A stretch of DNA of 64,000 bases from Cyanidioschyzon merolae (lineage: Eukaryota). The notes beneath the pieces were generated by a model, which worked only from the letters and a program-made list of their open reading frames with translations, was not told where the DNA came from and did not search any database. A program made the position numbers and the translations under genes. The stretch lies in NCBI GenBank assembly GCA_000091205.1, contig AP006502.2; one strand, given 5' to 3'. Shown piece by piece: positions 30,187 through 54,165 of the stretch; position 1 is the first letter of the stretch, and every line of letters begins with the position of its first letter.

Positions 30187-30603
30187 GGAGATAGTCCAGA
30201 AAAGGGGTTTGCCCCACGGAACGACGCTGAGTCTGTAGTGGCACACAGGGCACGCATTCGAGGAATCCTTGCACTGGTGAATTCAGCCAGCGGCACTGCA
30301 CGCAACGAGTTCATCAACCGAGACTTTGACGCTGCCATCGATATCAGACGATGTGCGGTGCTACAGACGAGACACGAGGACCCGTCATAATCCAGGTTTG
30401 TGCAGCAGCCTCTCAGGCTCGAAGTGTGCCTTGATAAACTGAAACCGACAGCAGGCGGCTGGTCACAAAAGACTCGGAGGCGTCTGCGCGTGCGTACATA
30501 CAATTACCCTCCATGGTCTTGGGTCATTTTTGGTATCATGGACGCTGCATTTATAATCCGGTTATCTTTGATGGCGCCCAACACGACCACGAACATGAAC
30601 TGA
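30187..30603 (+). pseudogene. TnpB/Fanzor-like nuclease C-terminal fragment (copy 2), frameshifted
   Basis: Frame 1 reads ...HRARIRGILALVNSASGTARNEFINRDFDAAIDIRRCAVLQTRHEDPS*. This aligns with copy 1 (...RRAKVRGLLALVSTTIDGKKHMEYVNRDCNAAINIRRCAVME) across the RuvC-III motif. Homology continues downstream in another frame (EVCLDKLKPTAGGWSQKTRRRLRV vs KAELYETKFEAEVRGRFKKTGRRLHV). No RuvC-I/II upstream. Confidence 0.55.
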
Positions 30604-30957
30604 GCACGCATTGCTCAATCAGAACGTTTCGTGGCTTGGTCAGGACAAAAGCCCCCCCCTAAAACCCTCGTGTGCGTTCCTCTTGGCAGCATCGTGCCGC
30701 GAAGCGATCGCTCTCAGGGGGTCCGCATTCAGCGCTGGGGTACCGCTTCCGCTCGCTCTCTGTCTCGCCTCGCCATGGACGCACGCAGGCATGAACGCCG
30801 TACGCTGCACGAGAGTTCGCTCCCTGTGAATGCATATATCCTTTCTGCATTAAACGCTCACATTTCCAGAGCGATTTGGAGCATCCAATGGTGCTCACGA
30901 AAGCGCCGACGACGCCGTAGACGTTCGGCTTCTGATGTATGCGCAAAAAGAAACGTC

Positions 30958-31959
30958 TTACGGGGGATCTTTCGTGCCGGCCTTGAATTCGTCTGGCTGC
31001 GCTGTGTTTGCATCGATGTTCGGGGCCGGCGCATCTGGGGGTTGTGCAAAAAACTTGATCGCTAGAATCGTCACCCAATCGTAAAGGGAATGCGTGATAG
31101 ACGGTGCTGCTAGATTGTGATGTGCCAGTTCAAACTGAATCGCAAAGAAAGCACCAGCCATACTGCTGAGCACGAAGTAAGCGACGTTGGCGGAGTGCGC
31201 GGCGCCAAATGCTAGCGCGCTGACCGCCACCGAGACCGGCAGCACCCCGAAATATCGATCTAGTAGGCCTTGAATCGCTCCACGAAAAAGCGCTTCTTCT
31301 CCGAAGCCGGCAGCCATGCAAAACAGGAGCGTCTCGAGAACACTGCGTTCGCCGAACACCTTTCTGACGGTTAGCTCGGTTAAACGCTTCAGCCGCTTTA
31401 TGGCCGGAATCGGCAATATGTCGAGACTGAAAAAAATCGCTGAGAATGGGACAGTGTAGAGGACGCCATCTCGAACAGCCTCCACATCCGTCCAGTTCGT
31501 GTGCTGAAGAACATCGAAGGAAAAGAGCGCACCCAGTCCGAGTCCTAGGGGAAAGAGGGCGAGTTCGCTCAGCAGACCAATCCAAAACAAGTCTACGGTA
31601 ATTCTTGTGCCAAAGGTGCACACAAAACCTAGTTTCGGTGGTTGTACAGCTGGTACCGGACCGCTTTCGCCAGACGCGCTCCTCGAAGCACGACAGCATC
31701 TTCCGCTGGGCACTGCGGAAACTGTTTCAAACCGAGGAACTGTCACCGAAGCAGATTGCTGCTTGCGAACTTGATAGCGATGAACAAGTTCGCTTTCGCG
31801 ACCTTGACAGCAGTTTACAGACCAGCGCTTGGTGAAAAAGTGGCGCGACCCAGCACAGTACACGAACGCAGTCGCTTGACGTGAAACGAGGCGCTGGTGC
31901 TGCAGGCGTCCCGACGCTGTCATTGGTGCCCGAGCCAGTGCCGCTGCGTACCGCTGCAC
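30958..31959 (-). CDS. CPBP-family intramembrane metalloprotease (CAAX protease/Abi family)
   Basis: 333-aa ORF. Multiple hydrophobic helices. Motif 1 EExxxR (FGEEALFRGAIQ), motif 2 FxxxH (FGAAHSAN), motif 3 HxxxD (ITHSLYD). Confidence 0.6.
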   Translation of the reverse strand: MQRYAAALARAPMTASGRLQHQRLVSRQATAFVYCAGSRHFFTKRWSVNCCQGRESELVHRYQVRKQQSASVTVPRFETVSAVPSGRCCRASRSASGESGPVPAVQPPKLGFVCTFGTRITVDLFWIGLLSELALFPLGLGLGALFSFDVLQHTNWTDVEAVRDGVLYTVPFSAIFFSLDILPIPAIKRLKRLTELTVRKVFGERSVLETLLFCMAAGFGEEALFRGAIQGLLDRYFGVLPVSVAVSALAFGAAHSANVAYFVLSSMAGAFFAIQFELAHHNLAAPSITHSLYDWVTILAIKFFAQPPDAPAPNIDANTAQPDEFKAGTKDPP

Positions 31960-51735: not shown

Positions 51736-53037
51736 ATGCGACGTGACCTGGTTTTGCTGGTACTCATTCTGCTCGTCCTGGTACCTTTTTATTCGAAGGG
51801 GGTAACTGGTCGCGATCTCTATGAAGTTCTCGGCGTTTCGCGTTCCGCAGATGAGGCTGAGATCAAGCGAGCATTTCGCAAACTAGCCCTGCAGCTGCAT
51901 CCCGACAAGAACCCCGACGACAGAGGAGCCGAACAACGCTTTAAAGAAATTAGCACCGCATACGAGATCCTCAGCGATCGAGAGAAGCGTCACATCTACG
52001 ACAACTACGGAGAGGCTGGTCTGAAAGCGCACGAGGGTGCTTCAAGCGCTGGTGGCGCGGAGGGCCACGGGTTTTTCGAGCCCTTCGATCTCTTTGAGCA
52101 GTTCGGTTCGGTGTTCGGAGGTGGTTTCAGAGGCAAACCGCGAGGAGCGCACCGTGAGAGTGCCGCATCTGACCTGCCGCCTGGACCCGATCTCTTGCTC
52201 GTGCTGCCGGTGACACTCACAGATCTGTACAACGGGGCAGTTCGCGAAGTTGTGCATCGTCGTCGTGTACGCTGCCCAAAGTGGTTTCAATCGTGTCTGA
52301 CGACATGCTCTGCCTGCCACGGACGCGGTGTGCAAATCATAACGAGACAACTTGGACCCGGCTACGTGCAGCAGATCCAGACGATCTGCACTGTATGTGG
52401 CGGCAAGGGCCGCACAGTTCGCACTCCCTGCGATGCATGTCCGCACGGTGAATTCGAGCAGCAGGAGAAGCTTCTCACGATCGACATCGAACGAGGAGCA
52501 GAGGATGGATCCCGAATCCCATTTGAAGGCGAAGGCGACGAGGGTCCCGGCACGAGCGCTGGGAATGTGTACTTCATCTTACAAAGCGAGCCGCATCCGT
52601 ATTTCTGGCGTGAAGCCTCTGCAGGTCGATCACTGGATCTTCATATGAATCTGAGCATCACGCTGCGTGAGGCTATGATGGGCTTTGAGCGCGTCGTGAA
52701 ACACTTGGATGGGCACGATGTGCGCATCTCCAATGGAAGCGCCGACATTCTTGCGACTGGCGACACACTACGAATACCCGGTGAGGGTATGCCGTCGCGC
52801 GTGGCCCCCAATGAGGCAAGCGGTCGCGTTCCGTACGGCGAACTCCTTGTGCATGTTCGGGTTCTCATGCCGAGTCGGAGCGCCTTGGGATCAGAGTTAC
52901 TGCAACGTATCGCATCTCTGCTTCCGACAGAGCAAGCCAAATATAATAGTGACGTGGATCGAGTTTGGGAAACGCGAGGTCGGCAGTCACCAGCTTCCTC
53001 TAATCGGACCGCGTCGCGTCCTCATGACGAGCTCTGA
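51736..53037 (+). CDS. ER-lumenal DnaJ/Hsp40 co-chaperone (type I DnaJ with signal peptide and C-terminal HDEL; Scj1/ERdj3-like)
   Basis: 433-aa ORF. N-terminal hydrophobic signal ([14 protein letters not shown]). J domain [36 protein letters not shown] with HPD. Gly/Phe-rich linker. CxxCxGxG zinc-finger repeats ([16 protein letters not shown]). C-terminal beta-sandwich. The final four residues are HDEL. Confidence 0.88.
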
Positions 53038-53769
53038 GCCCTGCGCCTCGACAGCGTCCACTTTCTGCCATAGCTACACCTATGTCCTAGAAATACATCG
53101 ATCAAGGACGCGCGTCGTGTGGTATTCCTCAGTGCCGCAACCACGGAATCCCGCAGTGCAAGTCCCGTTATCGCTAACGAGATGAAGCGTCGCATCGTAC
53201 CGCGAAGGAGCATCTGACGCTCGATGCGCTGTATCGCGCTCGCGAATATAGCTGTCGCTCATTGCGATAGCTGTCTGTGAGACCATTACGGGCTCAAGTC
53301 GAAGCGTAAAAAGAAGCCAGTGCCCTCAATCTACATCGCTTTCAGGACCTACTATGACTCTGCTGCCTCGCCACAAACGAGCAAACGCTGCAGCGAGCGT
53401 CCATCGGTCCGTACTGCTCAGATGCACGCGCACAAACAGCGACATGGTTCGCTATCCCAGTCTATATATATGTCAGATCTGAAGGTGGTGTCCCCGATGG
53501 TTCAAGTGACGTTCAGGTTCGTGATTCTCTCCACTTATCGATCGATAAAATGCAGCGGGATCGCTGGCGCGCGTACCGGCACCCGTGTCGGAAACAGTGT
53601 CGAGAATTTTATCGATCTCCTCGCAGCATTGGATTCTTCCAACAAATTAATCTGTTTACAAATCCCATATTTGATCGTAGTTGCAACGAAATCGACAAAG
53701 TTGTTCGCACCTGTTCCACCAGCGCTAAAGCGACGCGACACAGCAACGCGGAAATCATCAGTGGAGCGA

Positions 53770-54165
53770 ACAATGCCTCGCACCCATGGGCGGCAAATAC
53801 AGACACTCACGCGCAGACGCTTCCCAGACTTTTTAGACCGGCAGTCCGGTATCGGCGGCAGCTCTTGCGTCTACAAGTTGAGCATCAGAGGCTGCACTAC
53901 AAAGTCGGATCGCGCCTGCTCCTCGGGTCTCGTCCTCAGCACCGCACATCGTATGATATTGGTGGCGGCGTTCAAGTCTCGGTTCACGAACTCCATGTCT
54001 GCATCGACGCTGGTTGAACGCACCATGGCGAGGAATCGTCGAACTCGTGCCCTCTGTGCCAATTGGTGCACTGTCAGCTCTGCATGCTTTTCTATCGCCG
54101 AAGCGCTGCGCGGCTTTCGCTGCATGTCGTCCTTCTGAAACGTACACCCCAGGTCATCGCTTAAT
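53770..54165 (-). pseudogene. TnpB/Fanzor-like nuclease C-terminal fragment (copy 3), truncated upstream and frameshifted near the tail
   Basis: Minus-strand frame reads KLSDDLGCTFQKDDMQRKPRSASAIEKHAELTVHQLAQRARVRRFLAMVRSTSVDADMEFVNRDLNAATNIIRCAVLRTRPEEQARSDFVVQPLMLNL*. The tail SKKSGKRLRVS continues in another frame. An upstream stop lies inside the AT-rich run ttaatttttaaaa at about 54170. Confidence 0.55.

Follow-up and report, generated by a model that had tools for sequence, protein, structure and literature searches.

In the Fanzor1 and TnpB systems that have been solved, the scaffold of the guide RNA comes from the element's own 3' terminus and the guide is read from the flank. The present analysis concerns the relics of two Fanzor1-carrying families, here called F1 and X, in a 64-kb stretch (the window, taken at its full length) of the nuclear DNA of the red alga Cyanidioschyzon merolae 10D. 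For this species a single Fanzor1 family, CMe-1A, has been listed (Bao and Jurka 2013, Mob DNA 4:12, PMC3627910), an element termed unclassified that is present in about 150 copies of ~3 kb (~80% identical to the consensus), lacks terminal inverted repeats (TIRs) and has the 635 bp of its 5' end in common with another repeat, TE-N2_CMe. The same paper describes, in other species, an architecture in which a transposase and a Fanzor1 lie together between TIRs (TIR-transposase-Fanzor1-TIR), and it suggests that the coding capacity of Fanzors was under selection in the past.

F1 shares with CMe-1A the organism, a Fanzor1 protein, a size of ~3 kb, the absence of TIRs, a comparable divergence of the copies (81-88% identity in F1 and ~80% in the paper) and a 5' module of ~635-650 nt that is shared or exchanged with another repeat, whereas the paper describes neither X nor the older F1 subfamily represented by two fragments, A and C, presented below. 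The solved Fanzor1 proteins (SpuFz1, 8GKH and 9CEU-9CEZ; GtFz1, 9CER; PpFz1, 9CF0) resemble F1 by profile homology (E 2e-19 to 1e-4), by the fold (in a relative, P0159), by the RuvC D-E-D triad, by a length of 600-750 aa and, putatively, by a structured element 3' end; they differ in that sequence identity is 11-15%, F1 lacks the zinc-finger cysteines, the window copies are pseudogenes and both omega-RNA and cleavage are predictions for F1. X is comparable to the Fanzor1-carrying Tc1/mariner (IS630-Tc1-mariner) elements PGv-1, PUl-1 and PUl-4 (Bao and Jurka 2013), in that it is bounded by TIRs, has TA on both sides in its better-preserved copies and combines a transposase of the DDE_3 type with a C4-zinc-finger Fanzor1, although X is most likely a 1.39-kb derivative carrying a truncated transposase and a truncated Fanzor in one frame. 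A likeness to bacterial TnpB (IS200/IS605) and Cas12f (PF07282) is seen in the order RuvC-II, zinc finger, RuvC-III, in the NRDxNAAxNI motif and in X passing the TNB threshold, but here the host is eukaryotic, there is no TnpA, and F1 does not reach the Pfam threshold and bears a weak resemblance to Cas12 structures.

That C. merolae contains a decayed, dispersed Fanzor1 family was already published in 2013. New are the corrected anatomy of the region (two lineages in eleven pieces), the X chimera with its likely parent, the structural confirmation of F1 as a Fanzor1 devoid of zinc finger and, for this family, a well-delimited 3' terminus with hairpins. An earlier note on positions 30187-54165 had seen there one family with at least four Fanzor/TnpB-like copies in 24 kb. 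The Fanzor/TnpB-like nature, the multiplicity and the history of proliferation and decay are supported, and even more pieces were found (five of F1 and six of X, several of them outside that interval), but the single family has to be replaced by two Fanzor1 lineages residing on different kinds of element. The region is, with good confidence, a graveyard of two Fanzor1-carrying transposon families, in which every F1 and X copy is a pseudogene and nothing is functional.

The F1 family

The 246-aa open reading frame (ORF) at 34278-35018 (+) has 274 close relatives in metagenome protein sets, and a scan of metagenome contigs yielded 439 F1-related stretches, from which 80 loci were kept for comparison. 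Together with the about 150 copies reported for C. merolae (PMC3627910), these bear out the expectation that further copies exist elsewhere. Several of the metagenomes sampled hold a strain ~98.5% identical to the window and, therefore, the F1 loci found in them sample the family in a near-identical genome. When window positions 32500-35500 were compared with the 80 loci by blastn (81-86% identity), the similarity always started at 34019-34032 and ended at 35038-35082. According to all-against-all coverage and a MAFFT alignment of 36 loci, the full element measures ~3.3 kb, has no TIRs and is composed of a ~1 kb non-coding 5' region, an ORF of ~2.2 kb and a 62-nt tail with two hairpins; its majority consensus contains one long frame, coding for a 734-aa protein. 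In the alignment of the loci the first ~650 nt form an exchangeable module, with two alternative versions that are followed by a common region.

These 5' modules (loci L008-L074, ~1.9 kb upstream of the match to the F1 member P0003) are common to ~30-40 and to ~8 matching stretches from other loci, respectively, and the module of the minority class directly abuts the 3' end of another F1 in several loci (e.g., L033, L039 and L074). The 5' terminus lies near CTGATTTTTTC..ATGACAAAACGTTTAC, where neither a target-site duplication nor a clear target motif was found. F1 copies also contain a 75-nt (25-aa) tandem repeat, VTKDEDEKEADPATQEVEDNDFVV, just before the RuvC-I strand, in one to about six units; it is carried by loci L008, L026, L053, L083 and others, and the window copy (34019-34105) has one unit.

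The assignment of F1 to Fanzor1 comes from profile and fold comparisons. An HMMER search with an F1 profile retrieved 1411 relatives, many of them 600-740 aa long, and a profile made of P0003 and 35 full-length relatives (A3) matches the solved Fanzor1 proteins PpFz1 of Parasitella (2.2e-19), SpuFz1 of Spizellomyces (4.3e-11) and GtFz1 of Guillardia (1.3e-4). In the A3 alignment D421 and E592 of the RuvC triad are invariant and D658 is at least 90% conserved, the corresponding motifs in the F1 consensus being GADPG, VDEFRTS and NRDFNAAINI. Among the full-length relatives P0159 comes closest, with 43% identity to the F1 consensus across 661 aa, and its AlphaFold2 (AF2) model (pLDDT 84, pTM 0.82) was compared with the PDB by Foldseek: the top seven matches are all Fanzor1 structures (SpuFz, GtFz and PpFz; E 7e-17 to 1e-14, TM 0.52-0.71), and Cas12 proteins come far behind (E about 1e-3, TM about 0.2). 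An AF2 model of P0003 itself, calculated from a 21-sequence alignment, reached a pLDDT of 36 and was discarded. The profile match and the predicted fold of P0159 together place F1 in Fanzor1. The segment equivalent to the zinc finger reads TSYTHHELGCTLQRVEMEKCQRS (TSYTHHELGC...) in F1, without CxxC pairs and with the four cysteines gone; because fold and profile still place F1 among the Fanzor1 proteins, this absence is read as a derived loss.

Consensus and nucleotide-profile searches, together with the A3 profile, identified five broken F1 pieces in the window, namely one young 5'-truncated copy, one internally deleted element, one C-terminal fragment and two old remnants. The young copy (34019-35080, +) comprises residues 407-734 of the 734-aa consensus plus the 62-nt 3' tail (nhmmer profile positions 2477-3542, score 1293) and is 88% identical to the consensus in nucleotides and 80-87% in amino acids (tblastn). 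It retains the RuvC motifs SADPG, LDESRTS and NRDCNAAINI, but its reading frame is broken by one frameshift into the ORFs 34030-34281 and 34278-35018. The earlier note had drawn this copy as near-full-length at 33.75-35.02 kb; F1 is confined to 34019-35080, and the stretch from 33.75 to 34.014 kb belongs to the 3' end of an X copy. The peptides quoted in the note are present at their places (NEFINRDFDAAIDIRRCAVL at 30187-30603, +; MEFVNRDLNAATNIIRCAVL at 53770-54165, -; and KHMEYVNRDCNAAINIRRCAV at the end of ORF 34278-35018, +), and the three C-terminal pieces are homologous, as had been proposed, with pairwise BLASTP E values of 1e-21 to 1e-24. In tblastn of the 246-aa ORF against the window, fragment C (54155-53805) is matched with E 2.6e-23 and fragment A (30229-30492) with E 8.5e-15. 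Their identity, which had been put at 50-60%, is in fact 42-49% over about 90 aa (pairwise BLASTP).

Fragment A (30187-30603, +) covers residues ~640-728 with the RuvC-III motif INRDFDAAIDI and one in-frame stop, and its nhmmer match (30229-30491) corresponds to profile positions 3218-3455 (E 6.8e-28). It had been taken for a bare C-terminal fragment, but immediately before it, at 29939-30164 (+), lies an F1 5' region made of the end of the 5' untranslated region (UTR) and the start of the ORF (profile positions 1074-1297, E 1.1e-22), and residues 1-36 are matched at 30064-30183 (46%, tblastn). Fragment A thus belongs to an internally deleted F1 element, in which the 5' region (1074-1297) is joined to the C-terminal region (3218-3455). 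Fragment C (53805-54157, -) covers residues 612-729 and contains the motif VNRDLNAATNI (nhmmer E 1.4e-37, tblastn E 1.2e-24). Fragments A and C are 75% identical over 189 nt and have in common a 3' tail that is unlike the tail of the main family; they represent an older F1 subfamily. The two remaining pieces are an old, heavily decayed and nearly full-length F1-like Fanzor1 pseudogene at 19200-20781 (+), recognized by the consensus in tblastn (E 2.3e-16) and by three colinear A3 matches (positions 102-172, 317-466 and 515-574; best E 5e-11), and an old F1-like remnant of the RuvC region at 39221-39750 (-; tblastn E 9e-14, A3 profile E 2.6e-11).

The X element and the competing readings of the region

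X was found by nhmmer with window positions 32300-34100 as query, as a separate repeat with constant limits (~32630 to 34018), present in six copies in the window and in many copies with the same limits in the metagenome loci. It is an element of 1.39 kb whose consensus TIR is ~25 nt long (CACCCGTGTCAGATTAAAATGGAAC). TIRs were detected at both ends of the copies 4504-5874 and 32634-34014 and in the X consensus; TA is found on both sides of two window copies and after the 3' TIR in most copies with a detectable TIR, although TA is missing from two 5' flanks and decay has made many ends unreadable. Translation of the consensus gives a helix-turn-helix (HTH) region, a DDE_3 core (FVAIDETAF...FIMDNIAFHKS...YSP) and a Fanzor C-terminus (VIVGYGTG...VDIWEHLTTAKCHRC...CMKC...NRDFNAAINI). 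As its translation reads, X unites the N-terminal ~265 aa of a DDE_3 transposase with the last ~165 aa of a second Fanzor1, one that carries a zinc finger; the transposase part contributes the HTH and two catalytic Asp residues, the first and the second, and the Fanzor part contributes RuvC-II, zinc finger and RuvC-III. The consensus matches the Pfam families PF13358 (DDE_3; E 7.9e-9, 36 bits, cut-off 28.6) and PF07282 (Cas12f1-like_TNB; 27.4 bits, cut-off 26.3), the zinc finger CHRC...CMKC is present, and the C-terminal part aligns to the region from RuvC-II to RuvC-III of the Fanzor1 profile with 97.6% probability (hhalign).

Both components exist separately as complete proteins. P0308 is an intact DDE_3 transposase of 317 aa that matches the first two thirds of X (29% identity over 64% of the length of the X consensus, E 2e-23), the transposase part of X breaking off directly ahead of the third catalytic residue. 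P0306 and P0309 are full-length Fanzors of 682-684 aa that match the last third of X alone (only residues 521-673 in the 682-aa P0306). In contig L086 an X-like TIR and a transposase are followed by the beginning of a Fanzor-like ORF, and contig L085 shows a Fanzor followed by an X-like 3' TIR. X is most likely a non-autonomous derivative, produced by internal deletion, of a parent with the order TIR-transposase-Fanzor1-TIR. Such a deletion would have removed ~50 aa from the end of the transposase and ~520 aa from the start of the Fanzor, leaving one chimeric frame, and the resulting element would have been mobilised in trans and would then have decayed. At L084:170-2600 the full-length Fanzor P0309 is located alone between TIRs of its own (CTAGAAAATGGGAC...GTCCCATTTTCTAG), a Fanzor-only TIR element on a contig with coding sequence for ankyrin repeats as well.

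All X copies of the window are decayed to some degree. The copy 32634-34014 (+) has both TIRs, TA on both sides, a Tc1/IS630-type transposase remnant (32713-33484) and a Fanzor C-terminus (33475-33945) with the decayed RuvC-III 'NRFLYAAISIL'. The copy 37238-38535 (-; nhmmer 38535-37234, E 1.6e-225) lacks ~75 nt at the 5' end, has a 3' TIR that ends at 37238 and is followed by TA, and contains a transposase remnant (38512-37779) and a Fanzor C-terminus (37794-37296) with CxxC and RDSNAAIRIL. Also decayed are the copies 4504-5874 (+; both TIRs and TA flanks; nhmmer 4500-5882, E 2.6e-108), 14313-15755 (+; nhmmer 14313-15689, E 4.3e-78; a TIR-like 5' sequence at 14353 and a possible 3' TIR at 15743-15755), 46327-47650 (-; E 1.7e-80; with syntenic copies in L001-L003 and the best-kept transposase part, 55% identical in amino acids to the consensus over 230 aa) and 61644-62822 (+), which has an internal deletion (two nhmmer segments, E 2.2e-24 and 8.1e-41). 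X copies make up ~8 kb of the 64-kb window (~12%) and are strongly diverged (55-70% nt); because of this divergence they would probably be missed by routine repeat annotation of the 16.5-Mb 10D genome, considered 'repeat-poor', which in view of their abundance holds more transposon-derived DNA than it is usually credited with. No report of X in C. merolae was found in the literature searched. Its significance is that of a second Fanzor1 lineage in this alga, on Tc1/mariner-like TIR elements, that survives as an abundant 1.39-kb chimera (6 copies in 64 kb).

The earlier picture of one Fanzor/TnpB family, with a near-full-length copy, two C-terminal fragments and an N-terminal remnant, could draw on the RuvC-III-like NRDxNAAxNI motifs of all the pieces and on the true homology of the three C-terminal ones, but it is improbable and, as regards the architecture, refuted: the F1 homology of the 'full-length' copy ends sharply at 34019, and the sequence before it (32634-34014) belongs to another repeat, bounded by TIRs, of which the window contains six copies and other loci many, all with the same limits. 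The 'N-terminal remnant' at 37374-38256 (-) turned out to be the X copy 38535-37238, whose long ORF derives from a DDE_3 transposase, and 37374-37556 holds the CxxC and RDSNAAIRIL of X itself. Residues 1-406 of the F1 consensus have no match there, and the 237-aa ORF in question retrieved one near-identical database match only, which was the earliest indication against a conserved Fanzor N-terminus. A different reading of X, slightly less probable still, makes it a genuine fusion protein maintained by selection, with the RNase-H N-half of a DDE transposase and the RuvC C-half of a Fanzor. The junction is identical in every copy of the window and of the metagenome contigs, it is placed directly behind the YSP motif and ahead of the third catalytic residue and leads into the Fanzor 'VIVGYG' strand, and one window copy retains the 237-aa ORF across it; a shared junction is, however, also expected from the amplification of a single deletion derivative. 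Moreover, stops and frameshifts occur throughout all 20 copies examined (longest ORF 259 aa), the consensus requires two frame changes, the protein database contains practically none of these ORFs, with one match for the 237-aa ORF and, for the X consensus, four matches of which none is a fusion, and transposases and Fanzors are also encoded by separate full-length genes associated with this TIR type. That the repeats stem from misassembly or from recent segmental duplication, as a 615-nt inverted repeat of 96% identity with a partner 4 kb away might suggest, has hardly any probability, since the copies are 55-88% identical, not near-identical, and independent metagenome assemblies are 98.5-98.8% identical to the window over the whole 33.0-38.6 kb arrangement.

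Against the reading as two Fanzor1 families, which is preferred here, stand several observations. F1 scores 10-13 bits with PF07282, below the cut-off of 26.3, and PDB searches with a single F1 sequence (phmmer) or a shallow profile gave nothing relevant; the structural support comes from the 43%-identical relative P0159 and not from F1 itself; F1 fits CMe-1A by organism, size, absence of TIRs, copy divergence and modular 5' end, not by alignment of the consensus sequences; a complete parent of X (TIR-transposase-Fanzor-TIR) was not recovered on one contig; and no F1 sequence precedes the X copy that begins at 32634 (nhmmer with the F1 profile). Pfam searches of the window ORFs and of close F1 homologues had likewise given no significant match, and scans with Rfam and for tRNAs and tandem repeats produced nothing relevant.

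The 3' end of F1 and its possible mode of spread

The 3' ends of F1 copies can be aligned, in agreement with the expectation of alignable termini, and define a sharp end 62 nt past the stop codon. The stop codon is followed by a GGCG..CGCC hairpin, the conserved sequence ACTACTGTACAC and a terminal hairpin of 10 bp, after which the similarity ends. The terminal hairpin occurs in two sequence versions of the same shape, CGUCGUUCGA-cuu-UCGAACGGCG and AACGUUUUUC-uuuu-GAAAGACGUU. Tails of the consensus type fold better than shuffled sequences (z about -3.3), and a covariance model (R1) built from ten F1 tails identifies the motif at 51 F1 ends in metagenome loci and once in the window, at 35016-35079 (+; 75.9 bits, sole match), where the hairpin is partly degraded and the tail folds no better than shuffles (z +0.49). 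In the R1 alignment 82% of the cells are paired, versus 31-66% with slid partners, and 12 of the 20 pairs have changed on both sides, a number that none of 500 shuffles reaches. Two points weigh against the two-hairpin structure: these pairing counts were made on a model-fitted alignment of related sequences, and RNAalifold applied to a plain MAFFT alignment of the tails found no structure. The two hairpin variants are out of register with each other, and single-sequence folding and the covariance model were therefore used.

By comparison with the solved systems, the two-hairpin tail is suggestive and could be a candidate omega-RNA 3' scaffold or a right-end signal. If intact, the F1 protein would associate with an omega-RNA whose template is the 3' end of the same element, the terminal hairpins would form the guide-proximal scaffold and, by analogy with solved Fanzor1 and TnpB, F1 would cut DNA matching the sequence beside the element end. 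The competing explanation, in which the hairpins are DNA-level transposition signals, like the right ends of Helitrons and IS200/IS605, or a transcription terminator, is less likely and yet deserves to be taken seriously: they are situated at the extreme end of an element devoid of TIRs, as in HUH-type transposons, and a small hairpin-like sequence also exists near the F1 5' end. F1, however, encodes neither HUH/Rep nor any other transposase, its 5' region has no DDE_3 remnant, and in the solved Fanzor1 and TnpB systems the guide scaffold is encoded at exactly this position; besides, the roles as omega-RNA and as DNA signal are not mutually exclusive. The defined 3' terminus makes the omega-RNA prediction testable and would permit the resurrection of a consensus Fanzor1 from a thermoacidophile. 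A possible resemblance of F1 to Replitron- or Helitron-like HUH elements was also considered, but no Rep is encoded and Replitrons have been reported to be absent from red algae (PMC10288648).

The first kb of young F1 elements contains no transposase (DDE_3) remnant, and the two matches obtained there are adjacent X copies. The older F1-like remnants, unlike young F1, adjoin putative DDE_3 remnants and an X-type TIR-like sequence. DDE_3 matches in the correct orientation, although weak (E 0.13 to 0.001), are located upstream of three older F1-type remnants: a tentative one at 54327-54479 (-), immediately upstream of fragment C (hmmsearch profile positions 221-271, E 0.008; also matched by P0308, tblastn E 0.002); one at 39964-40365 (-), just upstream of the 39221-39750 remnant (transposase profile E 0.0014); and a weak match at 18626-19005 (+), upstream of the 19200-20781 pseudogene. 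About 225 nt beyond fragment C, at 53580-53592 (+), there is also a tentative X-type TIR-like 13-mer, CACCCGTGTCGGA, with one mismatch, at the position and in the orientation expected for the 3' terminus of the fragment C element. The chance expectation of such a 13-mer is ~0.08 in the whole window; the search for the TIR pattern is overall at chance (19 found, 19 expected), and only matches at positions predicted by nhmmer were used. This arrangement of remnants suggests that the F1 lineage may once have travelled on Tc1/mariner-like carriers, and the transposase and TIR remnants beside older CMe-1A-type relatives provide a lead on the origin of the family.

A speculative extension, to which little probability is given, is that young F1 are transposase-less selfish elements that spread by means of Fanzor1 and the guide RNA encoded at their 3' end, after escape from Tc1/mariner. 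The observations behind it are the hundreds of copies, the lack of TIRs, the failure to find a target-site duplication or, in the 5' region, a transposase remnant, the exchangeable 5' module and the conserved terminal hairpin. The route would be RNA-guided cutting followed by copying through homologous recombination, a process for whose efficiency C. merolae is known.

Local arrangement and neighbouring genes

The 5'-truncated F1 copy (34019) begins within 3 nt of the 3' TA of the X copy 32634-34014. The possibility that X inserted into F1 was considered but cannot be shown, there being no F1 on the far side of this X copy. The junction belongs to an arrangement that two independent metagenome contigs, L088 and L089, reproduce across 33.0-38.6 kb and that, for this reason, is not an assembly artefact: they are 98.5-98.8% identical to the window across 33047-38124, X/F1 junction included (matched tracts 33047-34272 and 33541-38124), and the assembly artefact named in the earlier note as a possible refutation is thus excluded.

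The inverted repeat described in the note exists, between 33013-33627 and 37636-38250 (615 nt, 96%; 94.9% over 650 nt in a second alignment), and constitutes the centre of two X copies ~4 kb apart that are ~55% identical elsewhere. Identity between these copies is 57-60 of 60 positions inside the tract (~98%) and 19-37 of 60 outside, and in the metagenomes the orthologous locus alone carries the 615-nt tract. Because of this mosaic of a ~98% identical centre and ~55% identical flanks, the tract is probably the product of gene conversion between the inverted X copies, in which these would have homogenised their central ~600 nt, generating the 'inverted repeat'. The published repeat TE-N2_CMe (635 bp) was considered as another possible identity of the tract; local gene conversion is the favoured explanation.

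The window is identified as red-algal nuclear DNA because the products of its MTHFR (43206-45113, -) and malate dehydrogenase (MDH; 48156-49199, +) genes are residue-for-residue the C. merolae 10D proteins BAM83511.1 and BAM83512.1, from a record of 1.62 Mb. The neighbouring ORFs correspond to eukaryotic housekeeping genes (Nop56/58, CRAL/TRIO, MTHFR, malate dehydrogenase and DnaJ). The first ATG (35069) of the CRAL/TRIO ORF (35069-36097, +) falls within the terminal hairpin of F1 (35053-35080), and in the related contig L089 gene callers take the start at the F1 hairpin (342 aa). No exactly matching protein is on record for C. merolae, and for that reason the annotated gene probably starts further downstream than 35069; part of the 5' UTR or promoter of this gene may come from the F1 terminus. 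Finally, perfect trinucleotide arrays, (TGC)n/(GCT)n, are present at 49881-49967 and 59352-59420, the first of which encodes poly-Q in ORF 49522-50034 (-).

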